From positions 2,369-66,368 of the IMG/VR virus record IMGVR_UViG_3300043436_003448: a DNA stretch of 64,000 nucleotides, one strand, 5' to 3'. Source of the stretch: a virus. A program made the position numbers and the translations under genes. The notes beneath the pieces were generated by a model, which ran no database searches, had not been told where the DNA came from, and saw only the letters and a program-made list of their open reading frames with translations. Shown piece by piece: positions 1-46,476 of the stretch (position 1 is its first letter; the number at the start of each line of letters is the position of its first letter).

Positions 1-3000
1 TTGTGATATGGAAGTAACATGGCAATCTCTTCATCAACCGCCGCCCGCAGATCATCGTGATTCAGATCATTCTGCCCGGCAATCTCTGGGATCAGGTCCG
101 CGTTCGCCCGTTTCTTGATAGTCGCCTGTTTTGCGCCGGTTGACCGATTGTGCTTCTCGACTGCCTTTTCATAGTCTTTGGCTGAATCGAAATCCTCCTC
201 CTTTGGAGCTTCTCCAGCTGGCTCAACATCGTCGGCCATTGGTGTTTCGAGTTCCGCAGGATTAAAGGAAGTCGCTTTGGCCAGTTCTTTGGCCTGCTTC
301 TTTTCGGCTTTGGCGGATTCCTTCTTTTCAGCAACCTGCTGGGCCATTCCCTGAAGATGTTGTTCCCATGCTGCTTTCCGGGATTGACGAACTGGGGGAT
401 CAATCGACCGTTCCGGAGGCGAATAGTTGGTTTGCTCGCTGGCAGGTTTATTGAGGTTGTCAGGGTAATTGCGGGGTGAAGGAGTTTCTGAATCGCCGAC
501 GGCCGGAGAGGAAGAGTCTGCCGGCGCGGATTCACCCGATGAAGATCCTGATTCAGCACCATTCTTCGGGGCAAACTCGCCGCCCCGGCTTTCACTCGCC
601 CCCGCTGGTTGTCGCGGGTGATCGGAGTTGCTGAAGTTTCCGCCGCCAGAATCGCCGGGATCCCGCAACGGTCGAACCCCTGCCTTTCCGGCCGCCTGCG
701 TTTGTTGTTGCGTTACTGCTGGAGTTTGTGCCTGCTGCTGAGATCCCTGAGCCGGACCAACAACAACCCGTCCAGGAATACCCGCCGCATTTGCCCCAGA
801 CAAAGGCCGAACACCCGGAACCCCTGCCTTCCCGGCCGCCGCTGCTGAAACTGAATGAGCAGCAGTCTGAGCAGGCGAGGGAGGAGCATTTGCCGCCGCC
901 TGAGTATTGGCAGCATGTTGGTTAATGGCATTTTGAATGATCTGATTGACAACATTGTTTCCCATTTGCTGCTTTTGAAATGCAGACGCTGGAGGAGAAA
1001 CAGTAGCCACATTTGCGGCCGGAGAGGAAGGAGCCTGCGCGGGCTGAATCCCATTCGCTGCCATCGCTGATTGCATCCAAGCCGCCATCGCCGCCCCGAT
1101 CGCTGCATGAGCTACAGAACGAAGAGGACCGGAACGGAAGGCTTTGTTCGCGAGAGCCATTGCACCAGCGCCGACGGCTGCATGGATGAGCGGGTGAGCG
1201 TATTTATCAACCTGAACTTCCGACATTTCCGGCCGGACATACCGATCAATCACACCGTTCATCGTTTCGTAAATGTGCAAACGAGAATACTTTTCAGCCC
1301 CGGGAGCTTCTGGTTTCTTCAAAATCACCAGAGAGGTATTCACACCGGTTTGTCTTGGCGCGTCACTCCCGGCAAAAGAGGATTCTGGAAGTTCCTCAAA
1401 CTCTCCATGTTCATCAACAAATTCTGAAAATTCCGTTCTCTTCTTTCGGCTTGCTTCACGGTAAAGACGATCGCCGCCGGGAACAACCGCCACCAGTTTC
1501 CCGCCAGGCTTCAACAGACTGAAGGCGTGTTTTACGTGATCAATCGCCTGATCGTTTTCAAACGGTGGATTCATCACGATTCGATCGTATTCCCCTTTGT
1601 GCTCCAGAAAATCGCTGTGGTCAACATCATGGCCCTTCATCTTCAGGAGATCCTGAAGGCTTGAATGATGTTCAATTCCCTTCAACGTGACAGAATCACC
1701 GTGAGCAGCCTTCACCGCGTCCATGATTCGACCGGAGCCCGCTGAAGGTTCCAGAACGCTTTGGCCGTCGCGAATGTCGGCATGTTCCATCAGCCGATCG
1801 ATCACGCGAGGAGGAGTTGGATAGAAACCCTGTTCCCGATGTTCTCGGTGGATCTTCTTTTCAAGTTCCTTCACTGGATCTTTCTGGACGCTGCCATGTC
1901 GTTTCGCCTGATGTGGAGCCAGTTCTCGGAGAGCGGATCTCAATTCATGATCTTCCTGAATCCCCATCGCATAGAGTCGCTGGAAGTCGTCCTTGCTGCT
2001 AAACCCGCTCCAATCATGTTTCACGCCCTTTGACTTTGCACGATTCGCAAAGTCGAACCAATCTTTGGTCGATTGTTTGTTCAGGGTGATTCCGCGGTCT
2101 TCTGGATCTGAATGAGAATTCAATAACTTTTTCCACTTCGTTGCCTCTTGTTTCAGGCCTGGCGTATTGGCAGCAGCATCCAAAAACTTGCCGACATTGG
2201 ACGGGTAGATAATCTGACGAGGCATCTTTGCAAATGCCGCAGAATCAGCAGTCACGCCAGCCTGATACGTGTTTTCACGTTCCTGATAAGTAGCGTTCTT
2301 GCTCCAGTCGTCGCCGTATTTGTCTTTCAGTTTCTGTTCTTCATGCTTTCGCTGGGCCTGTTTCCAGATTCGCTGAAGGGATTCCAGTTGAGTCAGGGCA
2401 TTCATGCCGCGAAGGTGTTTTACTTCCCCGTTCTCCATCGCTTCAGAGATTGAGCGAAGACGAACAGCCTGATTCAAGTCGTGTTCCGCCGATGCCCGCG
2501 CACTGGCAGCCTGACCTGCTCGCTTATTTGTGTTTTCCTTCCGTTCGGCCGAGTAGGAAGCTGCCGCGCGTTCCTCGAGACGTTCGGCATGATCGGCCAA
2601 CTTTTCCCCAACCGTCTTTTCACGTTCTTCCTGCTTTGCTCCAAGGATGTCCGACCGATCAACCTTTTCGCCGGCCATAGCCTGCAGGAACCGGTTTCGC
2701 TTGTCTTCGTCCGGGAAGTGGAAGCCGCCAGGAGTTCCGCCGAACTGCTTGTAGTACCAGCCGCCAAGACGTTTAGCCGCCGTGTTCATTTTGTCGTATT
2801 CGTCGCGCTCGACTCGGTTTTTCGGCGATGCCGTGAAAATATCCTGGCCGCGTTTCGAGTGAAAATTCTTAGTGAGTTCGAACCCGCCATGATCGCCGGA
2901 AACATTAACCTGAACTGCAGTTGGCTTCTTTACTTCTTCCCGGCCGGAACGAGTCTTTTCAGACAGCAGGTTGTCATAGGCTTCTTGTTGCTCTGAGGTG

Positions 3001-10298: not shown

Positions 10299-12277
10299 TC
10301 CGTAATCTCCGCTTCCCAGCGATGGAAGATCGTAGCCGTATCTCCGAAGAAACAGTTCTGAAGTGAAGCCAACGTGAAGTAATAACCGTAATACGGATTG
10401 CAGGTTTCGGTATCGAGAGAAATGAACTTCTCAGCCCCGGCCGCATTACCGGGACCAATGTACGTTCTTGTGATCCGAAGCTGTCCAAGATTCAGTTTGG
10501 CCGTTATCAGGAATGGGCCTGACGATGGTAAACCAGTGACAGTATCGGTGAAAAACGAATTCACTACCGCATACCCAATGTACTCGCAGGTGATCAGAAT
10601 TCCCGACCCTGACACGACAACGGTTTGGTAGTAAATCAGATCCATTTCCAAGGTACATGAACCAGTCGCGGGTGGTGGCGGAATATCACTCGGAAGCGAC
10701 CACCCGTACAATCGTAAATGCAGAATTGGGGGATGAGATCCGCAATCTGCGTAACATGGAGTTGCGGTTACGCATGTCAGCAGCAATTCACAATCGCCAT
10801 CGAATGACGTTGTAAGGTTCAGTGTGAAATAGTCATCCATCGCATAATTTGCGCCAGACAACGTACCGCTGATAACCGTGTTGGTGTCCCCAATTACGGC
10901 CGAAGAGATGGAGTAATCTTCGTAGTCCACCGACAACTGGCATTGACCCTCATCGTTCTGAGTGAGGCACACATGCAGATCAAATGGCATCGGTGAATCA
11001 TCGAGATCGACACCGCCAGATGAAACCCAGCACTTTAACGAGTTGCTCCAGGTAAAGAGGATGTTGCGATACAGAGTTTGATTAACGTACAGGAAGCCGC
11101 AAAGGTACTTCGGAACGCATCGTCGCTTGCCGCAGTGATAGTCCCAGCATCCGCACCGACCGCCGCGGATGTCGATTCCTGCCAGATCCTCAGCGATGGA
11201 TTGCCCAGGTAGCGACGGTGGTGAAGGATCGTCGACCGGCCGAACGTCCAAACTCTTGAAGTCACATCCGCAGCTTGTGAGGGGAACTCGCTGGTAGGTT
11301 TCGCCTTCCCCGTCCGTTGTTGCTGGAGATTCGAAATCCGGCTGAAGAAACGTGCTCCCGTACAAATCCTGAATCAAATGCAAATGCTGAACGAATGCCG
11401 TCGTATCTTTTGGATTATGAATCCATCGGCCAATAATCCACTCCTGCTGATCTTCGTCAAATCGCGGTTCAAAATACTCATCCCATGCGAAATCTCGCCA
11501 CCATTCGATTTCCCAAGATATCCGAGGCGATCGAATTCGATTGATTCGATTGTGTTTCTTTGTGATGCAGATGTACCTTGGCAGGTCAGTACATTCGTAG
11601 GTTTCAAACCCTTCTGGAAACGGCACCGTGATGCTAAGAGTGTCGTCCACTGAATCAGATGGAAATCGCGTTCTGAATGGCACCTTCACTGTGGCGTAAT
11701 TGTTGAGTGAAATGGTCCCGACGCATCCATCATAGGCCGTCACTCCCGTTACTGAAATCGCCGGTACTCCAAGGCACGTCACAACTGTGTGATCAATGCT
11801 AACTTCCTCACTGATCCCAAGCGATGGAATCAAAATCGTCCATCGGCACCCTGTGTCGTACAGGTCCGCATATGCTCCAATTGCGGCATTCGAGAGGTAA
11901 ATCGTGATACTGTGCCCGACGATCGAGCCAGAATAGACAATGACATCTTCGCCGCCTGTTGTTCCAACTCCGGCCAACATCGGCACCACGACATTTCGAC
12001 AACATGCATTGCCATTGGTCGCAGTGAACTTCGCAAGAATCAACCGAGGCAGACACCGGCAACAATGCCGCAATTCCGGTTCTGTTGCACTTTCATTCTT
12101 CCGAACGTAGTTACATGGATCGCAACAACAGCAGTAATCCTTGATTCCCGTCCTCACTCCCGCATGGTGAGACGCGCAGCCGGGATGGATGTTGAACCGG
12201 TCCGGCCCATTGCTTTCACGGACTGTGTCAATTCTAGCCACTGATAATTTCCTCTTCGGAACAGCACAGCGTGTCAA
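10295..12277 (-). CDS. Cysteine-rich virion (tail tip/fibre-associated) protein
   Basis: 660 aa with many Cys clusters (CCCCDPC, CCRC, CGCW); located in the tail module. Confidence 0.5.
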   Translation of the reverse strand: MTRCAVPKRKLSVARIDTVRESNGPDRFNIHPGCASHHAGVRTGIKDYCCCCDPCNYVRKNESATEPELRHCCRCLPRLILAKFTATNGNACCRNVVVPMLAGVGTTGGEDVIVYSGSIVGHSITIYLSNAAIGAYADLYDTGCRWTILIPSLGISEEVSIDHTVVTCLGVPAISVTGVTAYDGCVGTISLNNYATVKVPFRTRFPSDSVDDTLSITVPFPEGFETYECTDLPRYICITKKHNRINRIRSPRISWEIEWWRDFAWDEYFEPRFDEDQQEWIIGRWIHNPKDTTAFVQHLHLIQDLYGSTFLQPDFESPATTDGEGETYQRVPLTSCGCDFKSLDVRPVDDPSPPSLPGQSIAEDLAGIDIRGGRCGCWDYHCGKRRCVPKYLCGFLYVNQTLYRNILFTWSNSLKCWVSSGGVDLDDSPMPFDLHVCLTQNDEGQCQLSVDYEDYSISSAVIGDTNTVISGTLSGANYAMDDYFTLNLTTSFDGDCELLLTCVTATPCYADCGSHPPILHLRLYGWSLPSDIPPPPATGSCTLEMDLIYYQTVVVSGSGILITCEYIGYAVVNSFFTDTVTGLPSSGPFLITAKLNLGQLRITRTYIGPGNAAGAEKFISLDTETCNPYYGYYFTLASLQNCFFGDTATIFHRWEAEITE

Positions 12278-35723: not shown

Positions 35724-36046
35724 ATCGCACCAGCCCTGATCTTTGAAACAAAAAGGCGACCGGCAACACACCGGCCGCCCGTACTGTTATTCCCCAACTC
35801 GTTAGAGCTAGAGTCGCGGCAGATCATGCCTCCTATCGGCATAGTTTGTCAATCCATGCTCCATGCATGTGACATGGATTGTGCAAAAGTTTCCGAGAAG
35901 CGATCGAGAGGAAGAGAAAGACAGGCAGAGATTCCGGCAGGCGGATGAGGCTTCACGGCGCGGACGGCCGGAGAGGTGAGGAGCCAGCTCGCTGGACACA
36001 AGCAACAACCGTTCCCAAATAAACTCCTACTGAACAGGTGTCTCTG

Positions 36047-36362
36047 GCACAGATCATCTGTGCGCGCGTAAGTCCTAGAGGCTCTAGGGAAAAAAACTTG
36101 AAAATAGTCAAAAAGAGCCGCGCACACTTTTTTTCTAATTGTAAACCGGTTCACAAAAATAGCACTTGTTCACTATCTCATTTTCTACCCATTACTCCCC
36201 CTCTACGAATCGTACCCACTATACCAAACTGCTGTGAATCTAAGAAGTTTCCAATATAATCTGTGCTTCTGTGCTGAATGTTTGTAAGTGTAAGTATTGT
36301 ATAGGGTTATGGCTGCACAGATATGGCACAGATCGAGCACAGTTTAAGGGTGGCATCTGTGC
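36047..36362. repeat. GCACAGAT iteron-like repeats (putative replication origin or accessory protein sites)
   Basis: Direct copies at 36315, 36326 and 36337 (11-bp phasing); palindrome GCACAGAT-C-ATCTGTGC at 36047-36063; inverted copies at 36259, 36267 and 36355; AT-richer intergenic region between divergent arms. Confidence 0.6.
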
Positions 36363-36640
36363 GAACGCTGGGAAATCTGGGTTTAGTCGAACGATGGGTA
36401 AAACAGGAAAGCGAATCAGAAATGAGAATGAACGTTTTGAATGGTTTTGTTTTACCGGCGAATGTGGGTGAAAGTTGTGATTTTTATGTAACATGGATGT
36501 TGCAAGCATGGTCGATAGTTGTAATTATCCATGTCTGATATTGATGAGTTGAATGAGGTTGGTTGAAGTTAAACGGAGTGGCAAACGGAGTTGAAGAACC
36601 TCACGGATGATTCCCCTGGAATCTTTATGTGAGTTGTTAA

Positions 36641-37858
36641 ATGTCAGCGGTTCTCAGTGATTTTCATTTCACGTTCGATGCAAGTTGTGCCGGCCAGATG
36701 CCTTTCAGGGTTTTCTCTGAGCCTCAATCAAAAGTGATTGAAGTTGTTGAAGTTGTGAAACCTGAAGTCGTGGATAACCGGAGTTTGGTGGATCTCTACA
36801 ACGAGTTATTGGCGGCCAGTGACAAGGAAAAGCGAGTGTCAGTCAAGACGATCCAAGACAATCGATCTGCGCTGGACAAGTTTGAGACTTGGGGAAAGGC
36901 TCAACATAGAGTCGTCGCCGGTAGACCGCTGAGCTTGCTCGAGCAGCCGAAGATTCTGAGGACATACGCGGAGGTTCTTCGAGCGAAGCCGAAGGGCAAT
37001 TCTTCGGCGATGGCCAGCAAAGCCTGCAGTTCAATTGGCAAGCTGGCTGCGGCATGTGTTCGGGCGGAACTGATCAAGCAGAAGCCTGAGACAGTCAGTA
37101 AATCAACGATCAACCTAATGAGGCCGCTGAGCGAGGAGCAGAGAAGAGTTAAGGCCGTTCCGGTCACGGTGGCTGAGCTCCAAGCGATGTTGTCAGTCGT
37201 CGACGGGTGTAAGTGGCCGAGACTTGGCAAGGTGAAGCCATCAGTATTCTGGCAGACTAACTTGTTGTCGCACTATGTGTACGGGTTCCGGTCCCAAGAC
37301 TGGTTCGCCGCGCGATCGGCAGTGAAGCAGGGTTTGCTGTGGTCTGGAGTCATCACAGAGAGTCAATGTCCTTTTCTTGATGATCTCCACAATGAAGCAG
37401 GGTGGGCGTTGTACTTAGTCCACAAGACTGCGAACAAAGATGAGGCTGCTGATCGACCGTCAGACGTGTTGGTCCCGCTGTCGTCGAAGATGAGGAGTCT
37501 GATTGAGCAGTTCCGCGGCTTGAATTCCGAGCGAGTGTTTCCGATGAAAAACAATTCACGGACATACTCACAAGAGTTTTCAAAGATTCTCGAACGTGCA
37601 GGCCTGTCGGATGAGATGAGACGCAAGGATAAAAAGCCGATCATCCGCCTGAGTTTAGGGCAACGGAAAGTGGCGAGTTTCCGGAAGGGATCGTCGGCCA
37701 TGTGGGCGAAGTATGTCAGCAGGGCGGCTTCGAGCTACATGCTTCATCATGCTGTGAGCGAAGAGGGCGTTGCGAAGATGACTCAGGAATCGTACCTGCA
37801 GAACGAAGAGATTCTTCGGGACATCTGCGCGAAGATTGAAACGCTTCCGATCTGGTAA
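36641..37858 (+). CDS. Divergent tyrosine recombinase (cassette-array-associated)
   Basis: Catalytic-order motifs YGFRSQD (R), VHKT (K), ASFRKG (xxxR), MLHH (H) and MTQESY (Y); N-terminal core-binding-like region (SVKTIQDNRSAL). Confidence 0.75.
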   Translation: MSAVLSDFHFTFDASCAGQMPFRVFSEPQSKVIEVVEVVKPEVVDNRSLVDLYNELLAASDKEKRVSVKTIQDNRSALDKFETWGKAQHRVVAGRPLSLLEQPKILRTYAEVLRAKPKGNSSAMASKACSSIGKLAAACVRAELIKQKPETVSKSTINLMRPLSEEQRRVKAVPVTVAELQAMLSVVDGCKWPRLGKVKPSVFWQTNLLSHYVYGFRSQDWFAARSAVKQGLLWSGVITESQCPFLDDLHNEAGWALYLVHKTANKDEAADRPSDVLVPLSSKMRSLIEQFRGLNSERVFPMKNNSRTYSQEFSKILERAGLSDEMRRKDKKPIIRLSLGQRKVASFRKGSSAMWAKYVSRAASSYMLHHAVSEEGVAKMTQESYLQNEEILRDICAKIETLPIW

Positions 37859-37924
37859 TGAGATCGAAATGAACATCCGCTGTTGATTGGTTTCGTTATG
37901 TGGAACACTAAGGAGTCGATTGAA

Positions 37925-38128
37925 ATGTGGGCGTGGATTAAAGCACTGTTGACGAGTCGGAAACCGAAAAAATCTATTGTTCCGCCAGTGGGGCGAAAGC
38001 AGTGGACACTCGACCAAATGCCTCCTGGAGATCCAATGATGCGAGAGGTCATGATGAGGGCATTGAATTCTGGAGAGCCAACGTTTGCCAGTCGCGACGA
38101 TAAGGGCAAGGTGACGTATCACGAGTAA
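37925..38128 (+). CDS. Cassette gene, hypothetical
   Basis: MWAWIKALL.. after AAGGAG RBS; its stop is the TAA of the site at 38126. Confidence 0.6.
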   Translation: MWAWIKALLTSRKPKKSIVPPVGRKQWTLDQMPPGDPMMREVMMRALNSGEPTFASRDDKGKVTYHE

Positions 38129-38173
38129 CAGAGGTAATTGCATCCGCTGTTCCTGAAAACATTGGAGATTTTA

Positions 38174-38968
38174 ATGCGTGTTCTTTCGTTTGGTGCTGGC
38201 GTTCAATCAACAGCATTGCTGCACATGATGATTGAAGGATTGATAAATCCAGTCGACCTGATCGTGTTTGCTGACACTGGATGGGAGCCGGAATCGGTGT
38301 ATTCTCACGTCGAACAGTGCAGAATCATTGCCGATGAGTATGGAATCGAGTGGTCGACAGTCTCAAACGATCTAGGCAATGCGGAACTGTCCGCAGTAGC
38401 AGGCGACGCCAATGGTGTTCACGTTCCATATTTCACTCGGTTCAGTGGCAAATCTGGAATGGTGCGGCGGACGTGTACGCGGCTATTCAAAATCGAGCCA
38501 ATTCGCCGTGAGATCAAACGTCGCATGGGTCTTCAGAAAGGCGAGCGAGTCAAAGAGAGCGTCGAAATGGTAATCGGTATTAGCTCAGACGAAAAACAGC
38601 GAATGACTCAGCCTGTCGAGAAGTGGCTCAAGCATGATTACCCGCTCGTGAACATGAGAATGACGCGACTGCAGTGCTTGGACTGGATGCGTGATCGCGG
38701 AATCACAATCCCTGCGAAAAGTGCGTGCGTGTTTTGCCCATACAAGAAGCGGGCAGACTGGCACGAGATGAAAATGAATGATCCGGAGTCGTGGCGAAAA
38801 GCAGTCAGTTTTGACAATGCGATGCGTGATAGGACCAATGACGAATCGCAGTTATTTTTGTTGGCGAGTCTTGAACCACTGGAAACCGCCAAGCTGATCA
38901 CCAGTACGCGAGAGGCGCAAACGGAGTTTGGTTTTGTTGACGAATGTGAAGGCATGTGCGGCGTCTGA
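38174..38968 (+). CDS. Cassette gene: PAPS-reductase-family (PP-loop) protein
   Basis: LSFGAGVQST, FADTGWE, RTCT..FKIEP, KSACVFCP, CEGMCGV. Confidence 0.8.
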   Translation: MRVLSFGAGVQSTALLHMMIEGLINPVDLIVFADTGWEPESVYSHVEQCRIIADEYGIEWSTVSNDLGNAELSAVAGDANGVHVPYFTRFSGKSGMVRRTCTRLFKIEPIRREIKRRMGLQKGERVKESVEMVIGISSDEKQRMTQPVEKWLKHDYPLVNMRMTRLQCLDWMRDRGITIPAKSACVFCPYKKRADWHEMKMNDPESWRKAVSFDNAMRDRTNDESQLFLLASLEPLETAKLITSTREAQTEFGFVDECEGMCGV

Positions 38969-39013
38969 AAGTAACAGCGGAACTTGTATTCGATAGTCGT
39001 TGAAAGGGCATTT

Positions 39014-39283
39014 ATGACACTGTGCATCGTTGTGTTTGATGATGAAAACGGGCTGTGCGTCCCGATGACTGCTGACGCTGATTGCGAGGGAGCAATCGAG
39101 GCCGGTTCTGGTCCGGTCATCGTGTTTGCAAATCGGGAAGCTGCTCGCAAGGCAATCAAAATTTCAAAGGCAAAAGCCGAGTTATTGAAGGCTCAAGGCA
39201 AACCTGCCAACGAAGACTTCTTGGCATCCTGCAAGTGCCTGAAGATCCGGCAAGTGACATCATGGATCGTGTCAGGACAATGA
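39014..39283 (+). CDS. Cassette gene, hypothetical
   Basis: MTLCIVVFDDENG..; its TGA lies in the site at 39281. Confidence 0.6.
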   Translation: MTLCIVVFDDENGLCVPMTADADCEGAIEAGSGPVIVFANREAARKAIKISKAKAELLKAQGKPANEDFLASCKCLKIRQVTSWIVSGQ

Positions 39284-39321
39284 GCAGCGGTATTCCGTTC
39301 CGATCGTCAAAAGGGACTATT

Positions 39322-39570
39322 GTGTCTGAATTCGTTTACCTCGTGAATCTCTGTCACTCAATGGATGACATTCCGATGCGAATGTTTGCCGATGTCGACG
39401 CTGCGTTTGAGTACGCGAAGCTGATCGACTGGGAAGTTCCAGACGAGATGTACAAAAGGCTAGAATTGCCAGCGTGCTCAACGCCGGTTTGTGTGACTGT
39501 GACAACGTTCTGTAACGGGGTTCCGATGAGTCGGGTGGTTGTTCGGTCGTTCGATGAAGATGATGAGTAA
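39322..39570 (+). CDS. Cassette gene, hypothetical
   Basis: GTG start after AAGGGA; its TAA lies in the site at 39568. Confidence 0.6.
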   Translation: MSEFVYLVNLCHSMDDIPMRMFADVDAAFEYAKLIDWEVPDEMYKRLELPACSTPVCVTVTTFCNGVPMSRVVVRSFDEDDE

Positions 39571-39606
39571 CAGCGGTTGTCGATGTCCGATCGTCTCAGG
39601 GAGTTG

Positions 39607-39825
39607 ATGATGCAAAAGGCAGCAGTTAAGAGGTGGTGCAAACGTGGCGACACAATCAGAACGGTCAAGCCTTTGCATTTAGCTCCGGGGCGGCATTTGC
39701 ACAGCATTTGCGACACTGCAGATTCCTGTGCGTATGCCAATGAATTGATCGCAAAGGGGCGGTGGGAAGTTAGTGCCTGTGGCTTGTGCGGTCGCAGCGT
39801 TGACTATTGCGACTGCGAGCAATGA
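39607..39825 (+). CDS. Cassette gene, Cys-rich hypothetical
   Basis: C-terminal CGLC..CDC; its TGA lies in the site at 39823. Confidence 0.55.
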   Translation: MMQKAAVKRWCKRGDTIRTVKPLHLAPGRHLHSICDTADSCAYANELIAKGRWEVSACGLCGRSVDYCDCEQ

Positions 39826-39867
39826 GCAGCGGTGTTGGTGTTCGCGTTTACTTTTGGGAGGTGAATT

Positions 39868-40086
39868 GTGGCAGTGGCAGCAAAGGTAAAGAGACCGTTT
39901 CAGAAGCTGAAAGGTGTAACGAAAGAGAATGACGAATACGCTATGTTCAACGATCGTCGTCCGTTCGTGTTCTCGATGGTGTTCCGGGACGGGAGCAAGG
40001 TTGAGAGTGAGGGCAGTGTCAGGCCAGAAGACTGCAAGCGGTTGGCGGAGATTTTCAAAGAGTTGATGGCGTTGGCGAAAAAGTAA
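39868..40086 (+). CDS. Cassette gene, hypothetical
   Basis: GGAGGTG RBS; its TAA lies in the site at 40084. Confidence 0.65.
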   Translation: MAVAAKVKRPFQKLKGVTKENDEYAMFNDRRPFVFSMVFRDGSKVESEGSVRPEDCKRLAEIFKELMALAKK

Positions 40087-40134
40087 ACGCGGTATGTTGG
40101 TCCGCTCGCATTGAAAGTTGAAAGACGGTGATTT

Positions 40135-40299
40135 ATGTATGAATTTGGCATCTATTGGGTGTGGTTTTACAACCACGCGGAACCACGAGTCATGAAGTTT
40201 TCGTCCGGTGGCTGGGAGAGTTTCCGCAGTGATCGGTTTATCCGTGACGAGATTGATTTTACTGAGCGAAAGCCTCAGAGGATCAGTGTTCCGGAGTAA
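40135..40299 (+). CDS. Cassette gene, 54-aa hypothetical
   Basis: Hand translation MYEFGIYWVWFYNHAEPRVMKF..RISVPE*; below the ORF-track cutoff; ends in the half site. Confidence 0.55.
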   Translation: MYEFGIYWVWFYNHAEPRVMKFSSGGWESFRSDRFIRDEIDFTERKPQRISVPE

Positions 40300-40329
40300 G
40301 TGCGGACTTGTAGTTATGGAGGTGATCAA

Positions 40330-40644
40330 ATGTCCGAGGCCAACACAGCAGTGAAGACGCAAGAGCACAAGCCAGATCTTTCACGACTTCCAGTCTGCGG
40401 AGGCGGCTGGCAACCGATGGACGCAAAGCGATCCTGGAATGATGGGACACAGGTACTCGTAGCCGTCCCAGTGCATAGCAAAATTCGGAACAGCAGAATG
40501 CGTGCTGTTGATGACTGGTTTTACGAGTTCTCTGTGATTGTGATCCGATGCGATGAGGACTACTTTGAGATCGAGACGGCTGACGGTGATGCCTGGGGCT
40601 GGGATCTTGACAGCGTTGATTTCTATGTGATCCTCAGTGAGTAA
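40330..40644 (+). CDS. Cassette gene, hypothetical
   Basis: GGAGGTG RBS; WQPMD..DGTQVLV resembles common small phage proteins. Confidence 0.65.
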   Translation: MSEANTAVKTQEHKPDLSRLPVCGGGWQPMDAKRSWNDGTQVLVAVPVHSKIRNSRMRAVDDWFYEFSVIVIRCDEDYFEIETADGDAWGWDLDSVDFYVILSE

Positions 40645-40690
40645 CTGAGGATAGGATCTGCACTCCGCTAGGCGCGGGAAGGGTAATAAA

Positions 40691-40933
40691 ATGCTAGGTC
40701 ACGTCGTTCAGTTAACGTACTCCCAGAACGTTAAGCAGTGGGAATTTCCGCCGTCGAAATTTGTCACCTACACGAAATCCGATGAAGCCTGGGCAAGGCC
40801 GCTCGGGTTCGGTCGAGAAGTCACAGTCCTGAGAGTGTTTACGATTCCTCGTGCGGTCTGTGTTGGGCATGAGAACCACACATACAATTTCCGAGCGTTG
40901 TTCTCTGATTCGGTGACCGGCGTTCAGGTTTGA
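40691..40933 (+). CDS. Cassette gene, hypothetical
   Basis: ORF bounded by the sites at 40650 and 40939. Confidence 0.6.
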   Translation: MLGHVVQLTYSQNVKQWEFPPSKFVTYTKSDEAWARPLGFGREVTVLRVFTIPRAVCVGHENHTYNFRALFSDSVTGVQV

Positions 40934-40973
40934 AGTAAACGCGGAGCACACTACCGCGTGTCAGGGGTCAATT

Positions 40974-41201
40974 ATGAGCAGGCTATTTTGGATTGAGCCA
41001 GCAGAACCGAAGCCAAGGCAAAAGCCTCGCAAACTGATGCACGTCATTGACGCTGGTGGTGGTGACTGCGGCGGAATGGAACGCGGCAAGCATCTTGTGC
41101 GGTTCGGGTGCGGGACATGCAAGCATAAAACCGAGTGGCAGACTGTGAAGAATATCACTGAGGGAAAGCGTGGGATTCCCTGTCCGAAGTGCAATGAGTG
41201 A
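40974..41201 (+). CDS. Cassette gene, Zn-ribbon protein
   Basis: CGTC..CPKC; its TGA lies in the site at 41199. Confidence 0.65.
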   Translation: MSRLFWIEPAEPKPRQKPRKLMHVIDAGGGDCGGMERGKHLVRFGCGTCKHKTEWQTVKNITEGKRGIPCPKCNE

Positions 41202-41239
41202 TATCGGTTGAGCGTTCCGCTGCTCATTGGGGTTTCTGT

Positions 41240-41455
41240 ATGCGATACGAGCAAAAGGCAGTGATAGAAAAAGCCGCCCCGCGAAAACTGATCGCGGGGG
41301 CACGGGGTCGGTATCGCGTTAAGTGTCTGTGTGGCAGGACGAGTATTTTCGACGCTTTCTCGTGGGCCGGTCACGGAGCACTGAGGTGCAAAGGGTGTAG
41401 GCGGTACATCAGCCAGGCTGGTGTGATTGCTGATAATCGAAGCGAGTTAAAGTAG
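41240..41455 (+). CDS. Cassette gene, Zn-ribbon protein
   Basis: CLCG..CKGC; its TAG lies in the site at 41453. Confidence 0.6.
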   Translation: MRYEQKAVIEKAAPRKLIAGARGRYRVKCLCGRTSIFDAFSWAGHGALRCKGCRRYISQAGVIADNRSELK

Positions 41456-41493
41456 CATCGGAATCGTGTTCCTCTAGGCGCTGTGGTGCAAAC

Positions 41494-41721
41494 ATGATGG
41501 CAGACCTGAAATGGATTCAGCCAGGATACGTTGTGGAACTGCATACGGGATGCTGGTTGAAGCAGGCTGGTGTCAATCACACAACAACACTGGAACTGAA
41601 GTGGGCAACGCGTTGGCCGACTGAACGGTCAGCCAAAAGAGCATTGAGCCGAACGCGGAAAGCATCAATGAAGAATTTTGCAGGCGCAAAGATTTACGGC
41701 ACGGATTTGGATAAAGAGTAA
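41494..41721 (+). CDS. Cassette gene, hypothetical
   Basis: Its TAA lies in the site at 41719. Confidence 0.6.
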   Translation: MMADLKWIQPGYVVELHTGCWLKQAGVNHTTTLELKWATRWPTERSAKRALSRTRKASMKNFAGAKIYGTDLDKE

Positions 41722-41758
41722 ACGCGGATCGTGGTTCCTCTAGGCGCAGAAAGGTTGA

Positions 41759-42034
41759 GTGATGGACGACCGAACGACGTGTAAAAAATGTGGATACTCC
41801 ACCTATGTTTGCCTCGAAGTGGTCGACGGCGTTCGGCTGTGCAGGGTGTGTAAGTCAAAGACTCTGCATCCACACTGGCCGCGAGGTCGCTGGAACGGCC
41901 AGAGGATCATGGGCGCTTCGGTGCGATGTGCGATCGATCTGGCCTATTGTCGCTGGAAGCCGCGATGGGATAAATACTCACATTGTTTTTCGTGGCTGTG
42001 GTTCCGAATGTGGCTTGAAGCGGTTTACGAATAA
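41759..42034 (+). CDS. Cassette gene, Cys/Trp-rich hypothetical
   Basis: CKKC..CRVC; its TAA lies in the site at 42032. Confidence 0.55.
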   Translation: MMDDRTTCKKCGYSTYVCLEVVDGVRLCRVCKSKTLHPHWPRGRWNGQRIMGASVRCAIDLAYCRWKPRWDKYSHCFSWLWFRMWLEAVYE

Positions 42035-42066
42035 CAGAGGACTGGTACTCCGATAGTGAGGTTCAA

Positions 42067-42372
42067 ATGTTTGAAATCGTTGTATTGATGTCCAATCTCG
42101 TAGTCATTGGCCTGCTGTCGTGGCATTGCTTTCAGCAGTCCGAGCGGATTGCAGAACTGAATAAAGACTACGATGCAGTTTTGATGGATACGCTGGGACT
42201 CAATGAGGAAATCGCGTACTACGACACCTGCATTAAAGAGATCGAAGGCGAGCGTGAGAGGCTGCAGCAGATGTGGGATGAACGGCCCGGAATGGTCGAA
42301 CATCGTGCCGCAGAGTCAATTCTGGATGCGTTGGACTTATTGAAGCGGCAGTTGAATTCAACAGAGGTGTGA
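42067..42372 (+). CDS. Cassette gene, TM plus coiled-coil protein
   Basis: N-terminal hydrophobic helix then heptad pattern; shares a cassette with 42377..42592. Confidence 0.6.
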   Translation: MFEIVVLMSNLVVIGLLSWHCFQQSERIAELNKDYDAVLMDTLGLNEEIAYYDTCIKEIEGERERLQQMWDERPGMVEHRAAESILDALDLLKRQLNSTEV

Positions 42373-42376
42373 GTCA

Positions 42377-42592
42377 ATGAAGAAGACGAGGCGGAAACGC
42401 AGGCAAGAGCGAGAAAAGCTGATAAGGATGTGTGAGGCGGCGGCGAAAAAGATCGGGCGTCTGTGGGCCGGTCACATACTCGGTCGACCATGTATCGTTT
42501 GTGGACAGGCTGGAACAGGAATTGGCGACGGGTTCGTGTACTGTCAGTCACATTGGAATGAAGCGTTCGCGGCCAAAGTAAACGCGGAGTGA
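42377..42592 (+). CDS. Cassette gene, basic Zn-finger-like protein
   Basis: CIVC..CQSH; reads into the site at 42579. Confidence 0.55.
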   Translation: MKKTRRKRRQEREKLIRMCEAAAKKIGRLWAGHILGRPCIVCGQAGTGIGDGFVYCQSHWNEAFAAKVNAE

Positions 42593-42616
42593 CGCTACCT
42601 CTGTTCTTTTGAAAGG

Positions 42617-42835
42617 TTGTTTGAGATGGGTTTTAAACGATATGACCTGATTGTGAGGCAGTCCGGAACTCGCATGGAAGAGAGGACGGATGGCGATTTC
42701 GTTCTTGCCGATGAGGCTCAGGCGGAAATTGATCGGTACAGAGCCAAACTTGCAGCAATCCGTGCCGTTCATGATTCGGCACAAGATGACGAAGCGGTAT
42801 GCCTGGAGATTGGTTTGATTCTGAGTAAAGAGTAA
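42617..42835 (+). CDS. Cassette gene, hypothetical
   Basis: KRYDL..MEERTDGDFVL; its TAA lies in the site at 42833. Confidence 0.6.
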   Translation: MFEMGFKRYDLIVRQSGTRMEERTDGDFVLADEAQAEIDRYRAKLAAIRAVHDSAQDDEAVCLEIGLILSKE

Positions 42836-42889
42836 ACGCGGAATAACTGCCCTCTAGGCGCGCAGAATTAAGAAAACAAAGGAGTTCTT

Positions 42890-43951
42890 GTGGCAGATTC
42901 GATAACACTGATGCCTCCGCATCTTGATTGCCTGACCATCGATCCGCACGCAATTCGTAAAGAAATCGAGGCTGGATACATTTCAGAGCAGCATCATCCT
43001 GAGTGGTCCTTGCGAATCCTGAACTACACTCAGCGGTGTCAGTTCGATTGGCGGTGGAATCCTCAGACCATGCAGTGTCGCGGCCTGATCGTCGATGATG
43101 CGTGGAATATCATCGCCAGGCCGTTTCCAAAGTTCTTCAGCGTAGAGCAGTTGGGCGGAGTCGTTCCTGTTGAACCGTTTGAGGCTTACGAGAAGCTCGA
43201 TGGTTCGCTTGGAATCCTATATTTCGTCGACGGCAAACCGCAGATGGCCAGCCGGGGCAGCTTCATCAGTGAGCAGGCTCAGCGGGCTACGGAGATGCTG
43301 GAAACCAAGTACAAAGACGCGAAGCTTGATCCGTCATTTACATACCTGTTCGAGATCATTTACCCGGAAAATCGCATCGTCGTTGACTACGGCGGGCGAG
43401 AAGAACTGGTCCTGCTCGCTATTATTGAAACAGAAACCGGCGTCGAGTGGCCGCTACACGGCTTCGATTCAGTGTTTCCAGTGGTGAAGCGATATGACGG
43501 GTTCAGCCAGTTCGATGAGCTTCTGGCGAATCAGGACAGCAGCCGGGAAGGCTTCGTCGTCCGGTTCGAGTCAGGACAGCGAGTCAAAATCAAGTTCGAC
43601 GAATACAAGCGGCTTCACAAGTTGCTGACCGGCGTCAGTCCAAAAGCAATCTGGGAAGTCCTGAAGTCTGGTTCTGACATCTCGAAGGTAATCGAGCGGG
43701 TTCCAGATGAGTTTTTCAAATGGGTCCGTGAGACTGAGAACGATCTGCGCGGGGCGTTCGCCTCGATCGAATCGGATGCCAGGTCGGAAATGCGGTACGT
43801 CGGGACTCGGAAGGAACTGGCAGAGCATTTCAAGACGTGCCGCTATCCTGCGGTGATGTTCAACATGCTCGACAACCGGGACTATTCCGAAACAATCTGG
43901 AAGCTGATCAAGCCATCCGGGAAGGCGTTTCGGTGTGACATTGACGTGTAG
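42890..43951 (+). CDS. Cassette gene: RNA ligase (T4 Rnl1-like)
   Basis: CRGLI, PFPKFF, motif I EKLDGSLG, SRGSF, FEII, EGFVV and VKIK. Confidence 0.85.
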   Translation: MADSITLMPPHLDCLTIDPHAIRKEIEAGYISEQHHPEWSLRILNYTQRCQFDWRWNPQTMQCRGLIVDDAWNIIARPFPKFFSVEQLGGVVPVEPFEAYEKLDGSLGILYFVDGKPQMASRGSFISEQAQRATEMLETKYKDAKLDPSFTYLFEIIYPENRIVVDYGGREELVLLAIIETETGVEWPLHGFDSVFPVVKRYDGFSQFDELLANQDSSREGFVVRFESGQRVKIKFDEYKRLHKLLTGVSPKAIWEVLKSGSDISKVIERVPDEFFKWVRETENDLRGAFASIESDARSEMRYVGTRKELAEHFKTCRYPAVMFNMLDNRDYSETIWKLIKPSGKAFRCDIDV

Positions 43952-44000
43952 GGTGAGGAGCGGATAACCATACCGATTTCACTGAGAACAGGGGGGACAA

Positions 44001-44276
44001 ATGGCGGCAGCGAAACAAAAACAACGGTTCAAGTCGATCGAGTCGGCTGAACGAAGAATCAGATTGCTGGAAAAACGGTTCGCGGAACTGGACGGCATTT
44101 GCGATCAGTACGTGGCAGAACTGAAGGCGCAGAAAAAGGTCTCAGTTGCTCTCGCGAAACTGGCATCAAAAGGCCCGGCGTTTTCGAATCCGCTTGACGC
44201 ATGGGAAGCGGAGCAGTGCAGGGATTTGATTCTGTCGCAGTGTGGTCTGAATCCAGACGGCACGGTCAAACAATAG
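44001..44276 (+). CDS. Cassette gene, coiled-coil hypothetical
   Basis: Its TAG stop forms part of the site at 44274. Confidence 0.6.
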   Translation: MAAAKQKQRFKSIESAERRIRLLEKRFAELDGICDQYVAELKAQKKVSVALAKLASKGPAFSNPLDAWEAEQCRDLILSQCGLNPDGTVKQ

Positions 44277-44319
44277 CGGATGACCATCACCGCGTTTACT
44301 TTTTTTGGAGAGTCAATCA

Positions 44320-44541
44320 ATGGGTATTTGTGCGGCTATCGATCATAAGTCGTTCCCAGAGCAGTCATCGTCCAGCCCGCCCGGAACAAAGGTGCGAGTG
44401 TGCTTCAAATATAACACTGGCTACATGATTGACGGTGAAATCGTCAGGAACGACATCGAAGAGCCAGGCGTTGGAATCATTCGTCTCAGTGACGGAAGGC
44501 ATGTATTGTTCACCGAGTGCATGTATTCGATCGTGAGATGA
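44320..44541 (+). CDS. Last cassette gene, hypothetical (SH3-like beta)
   Basis: FPEQ..GTKVRVCFKY..GEIVRND.EEP..IIRLSDGR; GGAG RBS. Confidence 0.6.
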   Translation: MGICAAIDHKSFPEQSSSSPPGTKVRVCFKYNTGYMIDGEIVRNDIEEPGVGIIRLSDGRHVLFTECMYSIVR

Positions 44542-44630
44542 GTAGCGTATCCGGAATGCTCTTTCACTTCAAACCAATATGTAACTTACAGGTAACATCC
44601 CTTTTTTTAACCATGAAAAGGCTGGCAAGC

Positions 44631-45731
44631 ATGACACTCACGAAAGAAACCGCGACGATCGAGAAGATTGATCCATCAAAACCCTTGGAAGTTTCCACGC
44701 CAGAAACGGCCATGAAGCTTTTCGAACCAGTAACGGCCGAACTGGGGATTGCCAAGATTCAGGAGTTCAAGGGGCTGACTCTGGAACTCAACGGGATCGA
44801 CAAAGTGAAGGCCAGCCGAATACTGGCAAAGAAAGCTCGCTGTGCTGTTACCAATCGCCAGAAGGAACTGGTTGAAGGTGCAAAGAAATTCCAGAAGGAT
44901 GTCGACGGAGCCGCCAAAAAGATCATCGGACTAATTGAACCCGTTGAAACTTACCTGGAAGGCGAGGAAGCCAAGCACCAGAGAATTCTCGACGAAGAAC
45001 GGAAGAAGGAAGAGGCGAAGAAGGCCGCCATTCTTCAGGAACGCTGCGATAGGCTGGCAAAGGCTGGTATTCCGGCTGGAAATCTCGTTGCCCTCGGAAA
45101 CATGACTGACGAGCTTTTCGAATGGCATTACAAGGATCAGGTTGAAAAGGCTGAAGCCGCCAGGGTGAAAGCTGAAGAGGAGAGAATTCAGCGGGAGAAA
45201 GAGCAGAAGGAACGAGAGGAGGCACTTCGGAAGCAGCAGGCAGAGTTGAAGGCCCAGAGGGAACAGCTGGCGGCCGAAGAGGAGAGGCTTCGACAAATCG
45301 AATTGAGCAGGGTGAATGCTGCTCCTTCCTCTCCGGCCGAAGAAGAGGATGTTTTTGAGATTGAAGACGATGAACCGGCAGAAGTGTTGATTCACAAGTC
45401 ACAGGGATGGACATCGCAGAAGGTCTACACGGAACCGCTGATTCCAGTTGAACCGAACGTTCCGCCCTCCTCTTTCCGGCCGATACCGGAGCCAGCACCA
45501 ATTGCCCCTGAAAATCCAATTCATACCGGTCGCAATCAGGTGTTTTTCCCGGCAGACATCGTTGACCAGTTGAGCCAGGCCGAAACATTAGCTCGAGCCA
45601 ATAAGAAAGAGGGGATTGCAAATCTGATGAGAGCGGCGAAGTTTGAGATTCAGAGACTCAGGAAATTACTCACTGAGAATTCTCAGCAGACTCAGCCGCC
45701 TGTTCTCGCTGGAGCTCAATCCTCTTCTTGA
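44631..45731 (+). CDS. Coiled-coil phage protein (DUF1351-like N-terminus)
   Basis: KARCAVTNRQKEL..KDVDGAAKKIIGLIEPVETYL; start uncertain (44613 or 44631). Confidence 0.5.
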   Translation: MTLTKETATIEKIDPSKPLEVSTPETAMKLFEPVTAELGIAKIQEFKGLTLELNGIDKVKASRILAKKARCAVTNRQKELVEGAKKFQKDVDGAAKKIIGLIEPVETYLEGEEAKHQRILDEERKKEEAKKAAILQERCDRLAKAGIPAGNLVALGNMTDELFEWHYKDQVEKAEAARVKAEEERIQREKEQKEREEALRKQQAELKAQREQLAAEEERLRQIELSRVNAAPSSPAEEEDVFEIEDDEPAEVLIHKSQGWTSQKVYTEPLIPVEPNVPPSSFRPIPEPAPIAPENPIHTGRNQVFFPADIVDQLSQAETLARANKKEGIANLMRAAKFEIQRLRKLLTENSQQTQPPVLAGAQSSS

Positions 45732-46476
45732 TCAGATCCAAAATCTTATGCTTTCGAACATCGCCGCCGGCCGGGACATCCAGAATCACTCTGGCGTTCT
45801 GAGCCGGTTTCATTTTTTCCGCCCACTTCATTTCCATTTCCAGAAGACTCTGGGCGACCGCGATAGCACCTGAATCACCTTTTCCGGAGGTGATTTTCTT
45901 TGTCTTTAGCTTCCCGTTTTCATCGTAAGTGCATTCGATTTTCGGCTTGATTGACTGCTCGACAACCAGTTGAGCAATTGCAGACAACCAACTAATACGG
46001 ACAGGAAGATATCGAGCCGCGCCGGAATGCCAGTTTGCCAATGCTGATTGATATTGATCCGGACCCGATACCGAAATATCGTTTGCCGTCGGAAGAAAGT
46101 CTTGATTCGTGCGAAGGAGAGATTCGCCGTATTCTTCAGCCTGAGCCCTGAACCGCGGATCCCCAAGGTGATCGAAGAAATTTGCCGGGATTTTGAAATC
46201 TGCCGGAATCCCGGAAGGTGTTTCAATTTTTACTTTCCTCTGAGGAGCCTTCTCCTTTTTAGCTGGCTTCTTATTTTCTACTGGTGGTTTCTCAACTGGT
46301 GGTTTCCGTGATGCTGGCCGCCCCTTCTTTCCGGCTGCCTGCAATTTCTTTTGTTCCTGCTGCCTCTTCTGTTCAGCTAACAATTCGTGAAAGCCCGAAA
46401 CGCCAACAGGACGGCCCGCCGGTTTCCCGTTGTTCCGTCCTGTCTGTTCGTTTTGGTTGTCGTTCGTGCCCGCCAT
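45670..46476 (-). CDS. Hypothetical protein (weak small-terminase candidate)
   Basis: 268 aa, basic N-terminus with GRP motifs; function unsupported. Confidence 0.45.
   Translation of the reverse strand: MAGTNDNQNEQTGRNNGKPAGRPVGVSGFHELLAEQKRQQEQKKLQAAGKKGRPASRKPPVEKPPVENKKPAKKEKAPQRKVKIETPSGIPADFKIPANFFDHLGDPRFRAQAEEYGESLLRTNQDFLPTANDISVSGPDQYQSALANWHSGAARYLPVRISWLSAIAQLVVEQSIKPKIECTYDENGKLKTKKITSGKGDSGAIAVAQSLLEMEMKWAEKMKPAQNARVILDVPAGGDVRKHKILDLIKKRIELQREQAAESAENSQ

Follow-up and report, generated by a model that had tools for sequence, protein, structure and literature searches.

Ordered, position-specific dyads at the gene boundaries of a phage accessory operon: likely addressed junctions for the exchange of gene cassettes

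Integron-type arrays of gene cassettes exist with a recombinase and, in the case of CALINs, without one. In Acinetobacter plasmids, pdif modules are reportedly gene modules bounded by core-type sites, on replicons that need not encode a recombinase; pdif sites are built as 11+6+11, bind the host XerC and XerD, and alternate in orientation around the modules. Heterospecific lox and FRT sites are engineered: identical spacers are required for recombination, and differing spacers prevent excision while allowing directed exchange. Cluster A mycobacteriophages are said to carry many copies of stoperators in short intergenic gaps, often overlapping stop codons; these asymmetric 13-14-bp repressor sites are alike everywhere and are distributed genome-wide. 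Here we describe an array of another kind in a stretch of 64,000 nucleotides from a freshwater phage (hereafter the window) that represents bases 2369-66368 of a single viral contig of 66,368 bases (IMG/VR record IMGVR_UViG_3300043436_003448). Behind the gene of a putative tyrosine recombinase of 405 amino acids (aa), P0001, short dyads lie at the boundaries of small accessory genes, and each bears a centre of its own that recurs, in the same order, in other phages. Very probably, these dyads serve as addressed junctions through which the phages of a community exchange cassettes.

Nowhere in the full-text literature searched were dyads of this ordered, position-specific kind described at the gene boundaries of phages, nor was a natural array of ordered heterospecific sites. 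The closest papers among the results are PMC2839356, PMC4122927 and PMC9892861. In PMC9892861, integrons are reported in phage genomes. PMC2839356 describes PeSLs (promoter-early stem-loops), which combine a sigma-70 promoter with a terminator stem-loop, are alike everywhere and recombine by homology; they lie between small non-essential early genes in the hyperplastic regions of T4-type phages, where insertions, deletions and replacements occur. PMC4122927 belongs to the closest literature on the same elements.

Late and structural genes occupy the minus strand as far as about 36 kb of the window. A rightward operon begins at 36641 with P0001, followed by 19-20 small open reading frames (ORFs) on the + strand as far as 44541. 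Between the stop codon of P0001 (37858) and the gene ending at 44541, 19 boundaries separate co-oriented + strand ORFs; a complete dyad site was found at 15 of them and a partial or irregular one at the other four, over a span of 37855-44301. The preliminary description of this DNA, which had placed a dyad at almost every gene boundary behind the recombinase, was therefore accurate, and all the site coordinates that it quoted hold. A complete site consists of a 12-nucleotide (nt) left arm ending in (C/A/T)GG, 9 or 10 A/T-rich nt, and a right arm starting with (C/T)C(G/T). The stop codon of the preceding gene usually falls within the left arm, often as ...GAG TAA or ...TGA G. The predominance of 9-nt spacers stands, with a count of 12 among the 15 complete sites (10 nt in the remaining three) instead of the 14 of 17 given previously. 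The inner consensus of the left arm, ...A-G-C-G-G-W, has its mirror in the right-arm consensus, both in the matrix of the 15 window sites and over 226 distinct sites; within the window, some right arms are indeed exact reverse complements of left arms at other sites, as had been noticed. The sites are as follows (L designates other loci; X1 to X4 contigs are from the metagenome runs treated below).

37855..37888, + strand: site 1, 10-nt spacer type ending gaacat; degenerate left arm (ends TCG) overlapping the P0001 stop codon; this type stands behind the recombinase in 11 loci and, in arrays devoid of P0001, behind a ribbon-helix-helix (RHH)-like gene.
38123..38155, + strand: site 2, centre aattgca; complete; same centre in 8 loci and in more of the motif-found arrays.
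38969..39001, + strand: site 3, centre acttgta; complete; 8 loci, inner left arm and spacer identical in 8/8.
39279..39311, + strand: site 4, centre attccgt; complete; first site behind the recombinase in 11 other loci.
39565..39598, + strand: site 5, 10-nt spacer, centre tgtcgatg; complete; recurs in other loci.
39821..39853, + strand: site 6; complete; spacer also in L194 and L184.
40081..40113, + strand: site 7; complete; recurs in other loci.
40294..40326, + strand: site 8; left arm and spacer intact, with the ribosome-binding site (RBS) of the next gene in place of the right arm; same spacer with a full right arm in L246, L189 and L175.
40644..40676, + strand: site 9; regular when read from 40644, stop codon 5 nt farther upstream than usual; spacer type also in L001, L086, L246 and L152.
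40933..40965, + strand: site 10; complete; recurs in other loci.
41196..41228, + strand: site 11; complete; X1, X2 and X4 contigs diverge here.
41450..41482, + strand: site 12; complete; spacer also in L155.
41716..41748, + strand: site 13; complete; recurs in other loci.
42029..42061, + strand: site 14; complete; recurs in other loci.
42356..42376, + strand: remnant consisting of a lone left arm ahead of the start codon of the next gene; identified by reading the sequence.
42576..42609, + strand: site 16, 10-nt spacer; complete; X3 and X4 contigs diverge here.
42830..42862, + strand: site 17; complete; X2 and X3 contigs diverge at 42855.
43952..43984, + strand: site 18; complete; related spacers in L086, L154 and L242.
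44268..44301, + strand: site 19, 10-nt spacer, last clear site; complete.

A weight matrix built from the 15 complete window sites was run over the whole 66,368-base contig on both strands, a scan that had been put forward as a check of the array. It recovers all 15 sites at summed scores of 16-29, which is circular, the matrix having been trained on them; support independent of this training comes from other contigs, in which the matrix likewise detects arrays. Reverse-strand matches are the same palindromic sites. The scan detected no comparable site in the other ~55 kb of the contig, except one at contig positions 770-803, and the sites are thus confined to the array save for that one; twenty shuffles gave 4-12 matches at the lowest threshold.

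Each site possesses its own position-specific centre of 7-8 nt, and all centres within one array differ. More than 50 other phage contigs have these centres too, with their order preserved and with unrelated genes between them. In 28 loci, 84 sites represent 36 spacer types, 18 of which recur in at least two loci, two of these 18 being false positives inside conserved genes. Pairs of spacer types were concordant in order in 85 cases and discordant in one, which involves a false positive inside a methylase gene; the pairs stem from related loci and hence are not independent. Twelve further arrays found by motif display the same site order. Cargo is replaced slot by slot: for example, a 448-aa N6/N4 methylase occupies in L001 the slot of a 90-aa ORF in the window. 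The window contig shares no protein with record G003 and two with G001, and all three carry the same ordered sites, while two cassettes of the window recur in G002 with 92-98% amino-acid identity. When cognate sites are compared, the exact run through the site is 16 nt long in the median and stays below 20 nt in 673 of 951 pairs, which are not independent. The free order that results from cassette insertion at attI, a feature of integrons, is not observed here, the order of site types being fixed. Given that no centre is repeated within an array and that the order is constant, exchange would be collinear, between genomes, and not a matter of excision or shuffling within one; the earlier proposal that the phage excises and reorders its cassettes is not borne out.

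Empty slots were also encountered. In L003, L124 (about 11210-11265) and L148, site 1 is directly followed by site 2, without any intervening gene: the right arm of site 1 adjoins the left arm of site 2.

Differences in cassette content between phages mostly begin and end at the sites, across loci and across sequencing runs, which supports the view that the sites delimit gene cassettes and mark where the content differs. A cassette common to L001 and L143 (96% nucleotide identity) extends from the left arm of one site to the inside of the spacer of the next, and other common cassettes are likewise bounded by sites. A C5-methylase gene occupies slot 2/3 of L129, and slot 3/4 of L124. Contigs of four water metagenome runs, one of them possibly the source of this DNA and the other three from lakes or drinking water, were aligned to 36000-46000 of the window. 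Of the 24 loose contig ends listed, 22 fall within 12 nt of a site, as do 16 of 18 when the possible source run is set aside, against an expected share of 0.10, the padded sites covering 10% of this stretch; 29 further loose ends lie outside the 24 listed. The comparison concerns contigs, in which rare junctions or circles are not visible; among the 24 sequencing runs listed as containing the sequence, none was of RNA. In X3, a near-identical RNA-ligase cassette is followed by a site of the site-14 type instead of site 18 (loose end 43949), and in X2 a near-identical PAPS-reductase cassette stands directly behind a site of the site-1 type (loose end 38156). Among the ends of internal blast high-scoring segment pairs, 91 of 518 lie near a matrix-defined site in both partners, a count that is not to be read as a rate, many of the other 427 falling in conserved backbone or at alignment splits.

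Contig joints that could be taken for deletions match over only 20-38 nt on their short sides, which are separated by unknown letters; they were rejected as such and read as site-level matches. An X2 contig, matching the window from 39594 to 40937, shows the cassette before site 5, the site, 32 other letters and then a left arm of the site-10 type. Those 32 letters amount to an RBS and a few codons, that is, a mini-cassette or a remnant.

Inverted arms at gene boundaries could act at the level of RNA or of single-stranded DNA, as terminators, processing hairpins or folded attC sites. A few sites are able to pair over 5-7 bp (e.g., 40933-40965), and site 14 is overlapped by a single terminator-like hairpin of the minus strand. 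Across the 226 distinct sites, however, Watson-Crick pairing between the arms at positions 3-6 was observed in 131, 126, 160 and 53 cases against 138, 133, 160 and 73 expected from the marginals, that is, without excess, and in one site type the left arm is fixed while the right arm exists in three unrelated forms. Because pairing stays at or below expectation and unrelated right arms occur within one type, these data indicate that no hairpin is selected in the arms, be it as RNA or as single-stranded DNA. Terminator-like matches (12 versus 9.7 in shuffles) and promoter-like matches (8 versus 7.0) are not enriched, and the scan found no promoter-like match coinciding with a dyad. With sites of 33-34 bp that are devoid of the RYYYAAC/GTTRRRY cores, as had been pointed out previously, the hairpin, terminator and attC reading was ruled out, and we regard signals of this kind as highly improbable.

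The arms would rather resemble a pair of half-sites, each degenerate in its own way, to which a dimeric or two-protomer protein binds on duplex DNA. Variation of the spacer within a type was read from single-mismatch pairs, clustering at two or fewer mismatches having merged distinct types and been dropped. In 29 such pairs of 9-nt spacers, the mismatch is at position 1 in 16 and at position 9 in 5 (21/29 outermost), and in pairs of 10-nt spacers it is at position 1 or 10 in 4/5. As variation sits at the outermost spacer positions, the invariant centre measures 7-8 nt, which gives a geometry of about 13 + 7/8 + 13. Arm symmetry and centre length both agree with core-type sites of the lox, FRT and dif kind (inverted arms of 11-13 bp, spacer of 6-8 bp). 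Judged from their consensus sequences, the dyad presumably resembles neither LexA nor dif sites nor other known operators. Two further candidates were set aside. Cassettes as transposon-like units with terminal inverted repeats left a weak signal (cassette ends match at 6.70/12 versus 6.41 for random arm pairs, p about 0.02), and restriction-enzyme-like interrupted palindromes with unique overhangs were judged unlikely, only GG/CC being invariant.

These properties set the dyads apart from the systems that they most resemble. Like PeSLs, they lie between small accessory genes and mark points of insertion, deletion and replacement; unlike PeSLs, they exhibit no promoter, terminator or stem-loop signal, and they have position-specific centres and a common identity of about 16 nt. 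They recall pdif modules in the small gene modules, the two arms with a short spacer and the movement between replicons that can do without a recombinase of their own. They depart from these by the 13+7/8+13 geometry, by one site per junction in a single register along the array and by ordered addresses, their dif-likeness being judged against the consensus. Heterospecific lox and FRT sites have the same 13+8+13 size, yet are a laboratory design, whereas the array described here is a natural one, known from its sequence. Stoperators differ in that the dyads are symmetric, carry unique centres and are confined to the variable array. The junction dyads fail the defining tests for integrons and for PeSLs, and their geometry is not that of pdif sites.

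A symmetric consensus without hairpin covariation would also suit an operator or insulator, that is, one dimeric protein (a phage repressor, an RHH protein or a host factor) binding every junction to silence or time the accessory operon in the manner of stoperators, with mosaic boundaries coinciding because the sites are intergenic. The overlap with stop codons and the location in short intergenic gaps, features also of stoperators, fit this explanation, as does a likely DNA-binding protein, P0001 or the RHH-like one, encoded directly before site 1 in both kinds of arrays. Nevertheless, a regulator that reads the arms gives no reason for a position-unique centre that is invariant across phages sharing no proteins, the sites are absent from the conserved gene block behind the array in L001, L002 and L124, and near-identical contigs break at the sites far more often than the ~10% coverage predicts. 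We consider a purely regulatory role improbable.

The gene at the head of the array and the conserved element before it are the following.

36641..37858, + strand: P0001, predicted divergent two-domain tyrosine recombinase of 405 aa, array head gene; assigned from its residues, AlphaFold2 model and Foldseek matches.
36609..36623, + strand: palindrome or hairpin of 6+3+6 with a T-rich tail, 18 nt before the P0001 start; terminator-like in a simple scan.

By sequence, P0001 stays below the cut-off of the Pfam family PF00589 (Phage_integrase; E=0.027, 14.7 bits versus a gathering threshold of 27.1), has no family at E<=1 in NCBIfam and retrieves nothing relevant from the PDB. Its own family comprises 165 proteins at E<=0.001 among 8000 candidates scored, and none of 120 listed members has a precomputed Pfam domain. 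In an alignment of 41 homologues, R217, K262, R348, H369/H370 and Y385 are invariant, the residues being assigned to the catalytic R-K-H-R-H/W-Y set by motif order and not by structural superposition, and Ala345 stands at the usual position of the first His. The AlphaFold2 model (pLDDT 77.8, pTM 0.66) gave 17 PDB matches at E<=0.001 with Foldseek (E 6e-5 to 1e-3, probability 1.0), among them lambda Int (core and catalytic domains), Cre, XerA/D/H and Tn1549 Int, over ~340-385 aligned columns that include both domains; its Atlas neighbours are tyrosine-recombinase clusters. Based on model and residues, P0001 is best described as a divergent two-domain tyrosine recombinase without an arm-binding domain. 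Its earlier assignment as a tyrosine recombinase distinct from the integrase at 48066 thus finds support in fold and residues, Pfam remaining below cut-off. The palindrome at 36609-36623 belongs to a conserved leader of ~75 nt (36565-36640) that travels with the P0001 gene; its stem is kept while the loop varies in 8 of 10 aligned loci. This leader may represent an attenuator or an operator controlling the recombinase and the array.

Homologues of P0001 were found in 34 loci (9 IMG/VR, 23 metagenome contigs and 2 contigs of metagenome-assembled genomes). At the nucleotide level, L001-L009 resemble the window over 36598-37892 alone, a similarity that ends at the first site (stops at 37856-37892), and no homologue of the ~19 window cassette proteins was found in the 34 loci. 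Regions downstream of the homologues hold the same kind of sites despite the unrelated genes. The stop codon of the homologue falls within a site in 25 of 29 loci, this first site being of the gaacat or the attccgt type; site 1 of the window overlaps the P0001 stop codon in the same way, and the first site abuts the recombinase gene as had been stated. The search for homologues that was suggested at that stage therefore located them beside similar arrays with different cassette content. In L137 and L139, the recombinase is 57% identical to P0001, yet the centres are identical to those of the window. Past many right arms, a further conserved leader adds to the common sequence.

A recombinase at the head of an array invites comparison with integrons. 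The likeness lies in a tyrosine recombinase gene followed by co-oriented, promoterless, mostly single-ORF cassettes of very diverse cargo. The differences reside in the sites, which are double-stranded-DNA-type dyads of 33-34 bp where attC sites are folded and measure 57-141 bp, in the position-specific invariant centres and fixed order, and in the recombinase, which is not an IntI: IntI (2a3v) occupies rank 48 among the fold matches of P0001. A proper integron was ruled out, there being no IntI family match, sites of 33-34 bp and no hairpin covariation. The term integron-like, as used at first, holds as an analogy and fails on the tests that define integrons.

Tyrosine recombinases require identity over a stretch of 7-8 nt. 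The geometry reminiscent of lox and FRT, the invariant centre of that same length, the short homology and the conserved recombinase gene abutting site 1 lead us to favor exchange by a recombinase at the addressed junctions, with P0001 as the most likely catalyst in this phage, to which we assign a probability of roughly 0.5; binding and cutting of the sites by P0001 are inferred. A crossover between sites with the same centre in two co-resident phage genomes would swap everything downstream, so that the arrays would stay collinear while the genes of each slot are replaced. The different centres within one array would prevent the phage from deleting its own genes, and arrays devoid of a recombinase would be served in trans or by another enzyme. 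In its fullest and more tentative form, for which we hold the odds to be somewhat lower, the locus would exemplify a natural recombinase-mediated cassette exchange: ordered heterospecific core sites, common to unrelated phages, would be acted upon by a Cre-like recombinase that some of these phages carry and that serves the rest in trans, allowing accessory and counter-defence genes to be swapped slot by slot without scrambling or deleting the array.

A number of observations count against a recombinase as the agent. The cassette common to L001 and L143 is followed by different centres in the two phages; more generally, strict exchange between cognate sites cannot place the same cassette beside different centres or one gene in several slots. 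Breaks are in some cases found not in the arms but at the stop codon or past the right arm, and the end of a similarity is by definition the edge of a common block, which cannot locate the point of cleavage. Within a site, the agreement between left and right arm (6.20/12) does not exceed that of random arm pairs (6.41/12). No site was found behind the stop codon of the recombinase homologue in L135/L136, L138 and L146. In L135/L136 and L138 (58-60% identity to P0001), the 3.6-9.7 kb downstream of the homologue likewise contain no array, and because these loci lack both, the P0001 family also exists apart from arrays.

The same objection arises from arrays without the recombinase. Single-motif scans of IMG/VR returned 114, 79 and 33 stretches, mostly chance single matches, and 215 loci in all, 36 of which qualified as arrays with at least three matrix matches on one strand. 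These motif-found arrays carry the same centres in the same order, and a P0001 homologue is present in the fetched locus in 4 of the 36 and missing from 32. Five whole array-bearing records (among them G001 and G003, 90% and 97% complete by CheckV) yielded no P0001 homologue with the A1 profile, which detected 4/4 positive controls, and a PF00589 protein is encoded by one of the five. Run with --max on G001-G003, this profile gave a best E of 0.05; it also misses the canonical integrase of the window (E 2.5), so that a distant recombinase is not excluded. The arms are kept equally well in P0001-less and P0001-linked arrays (CC given GG, 71% versus 67%; GG given CC, 92% versus 85%), these ratios being rough, as the search with 7-nt centres was swamped by chance 7-mers and ~35% of the matches had both GG and CC. 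The claim that the recombinase drives the array hence stands for its position, next to site 1 in the window and in 25 of 29 homologue loci, and is weakened by its absence from 32 of 36 motif-found arrays and all five whole records.

Where site 1 and sequence upstream of it are available, P0001-less arrays have before this site a DnaB-like helicase gene or a primase/DUF3987 helicase gene. Between the helicase gene and site 1 lies a gene of ~57 aa whose stop codon falls within site 1, a further point against P0001 as the sole reader. The encoded protein is basic, has an N-terminal KGRPK motif and gives sub-threshold RHH matches (NikA-like, RHH_10, MatP_C and RHH_1; E 0.002-0.06), which makes it a second candidate reader of the sites. 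Using tblastn, the gene was found in 15 distinct array-bearing contigs (19 subject loci, several per contig), and neither in the window contig nor in the P0001 loci. Examples, besides 12 other contigs, are:

L194:4725-4892, ~57-aa RHH-like gene.
L240:10127-10297, ~57-aa RHH-like gene.
L158:7425-7685, ~57-aa RHH-like gene.

The persistence of arrays with equally good arms in phages without a detectable tyrosine recombinase is what short-homology recombination at conserved linkers would predict. Here, a RecT-like annealing protein and an exonuclease of the phage, or the host RecA, would act without any site-specific enzyme, and the dyad form would reflect a second function, for instance a dock for a regulator such as the RHH-like protein. 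Homology-driven exchange preserves both collinearity and position-specific sequence, the window encodes a RecT-family protein (a weak match, E 6.8e-5) and a PolB-like exonuclease, the conserved leader past many right arms lengthens the common sequence, and breakpoints are in some cases located beyond the core; a precedent exists in T4-type phages with their PeSL cassettes (PMC2839356). Against it stands the length of the exact runs through cognate sites, of which the median and the 673 of 951 pairs below 20 nt were given above. Efficient RecA or Red recombination usually needs ~20-27 bp. Cassettes at non-cognate centres share even less with any partner, an arm of at most 12 nt. Homologous linkers also leave unexplained the mirror-symmetric arms, the fixed 9/10-nt spacing, the invariant GG...CC and the variation at the outermost spacer positions. 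On balance, we find this explanation rather unlikely.

Beyond the array, the window encodes a canonical arm-binding integrase at 48066 (PF00589, E 2e-21), the PolB-like exonuclease and the RecT-family match, both within 50.8-53.1 kb, as well as RecD-like helicases. Two cargo genes of the window belong to Pfam families, none being detected in the remaining cassette ORFs:

38174..38968, + strand: PAPS-reductase-like protein, 264 aa (PF01507, E 1.7e-7).
42890..43951, + strand: RNA-ligase-family protein, 353 aa (PF09511, E 2.5e-14).

Cargo of related arrays includes a SNF2/DEAD-type helicase, N6/N4 and C5 DNA methyltransferases and a DUF6884 protein (L124:11309-15196, L001:13101-14447, L002:11258-11932), a repertoire that would fit anti-restriction or counter-defence functions. 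A 70-nt tRNA gene is found as cargo right behind a junction site in L001:12013-12082, L143:2389-2458 and L177:2732-2801. ARAGORN assigns the anticodon AAA (Phe) to the L001 copy and AGA (Ser) to those of L143 and L177, one base apart, the copies being otherwise near-identical. The contigs of metagenome-assembled genomes with recombinase homologues bear discordant labels, Gammaproteobacteria and Chitinophaga, and no host is claimed.

The additional strong site of the contig (G000:C1:770-803, minus strand) is located ~1.6 kb before the start of the window. It belongs to the late region and separates a gene of 225 aa (contig 798-1475, minus strand) from one running off the contig end. A lone half-site of the right-arm type lies ~30 nt past it, just before the RBS of the contig-end gene. 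The 225-aa protein is 67% identical to a 222-aa protein that precedes a near-identical site in L001, L002 and L124; the spacers of the two sites are one inserted base apart, and a 407-aa gene comes next in these three loci. Site 770-803 may be a point at which a tail or host-range gene is swapped.

The genomes of phages have a mosaic structure, and their accessory early genes, among them those for methyltransferases, RNA ligase and helicases, are replaced very rapidly. It has long been asked what restricts exchange to gene boundaries. In the phages considered here, boundaries are marked by an element of ~33 bp that bears a position address and is conserved at the nucleotide level across phages sharing no proteins, and the exchange network can therefore be read directly from sequence. 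If driven by a recombinase, the array would be a natural counterpart of heterospecific lox/FRT cassette exchange and would provide a new set of mutually incompatible sites. If this holds true, integrons and dif modules would be joined by a third class of site-specific gene-cassette systems, and the linkers that the modular theory of phage evolution postulates would have a physical form.

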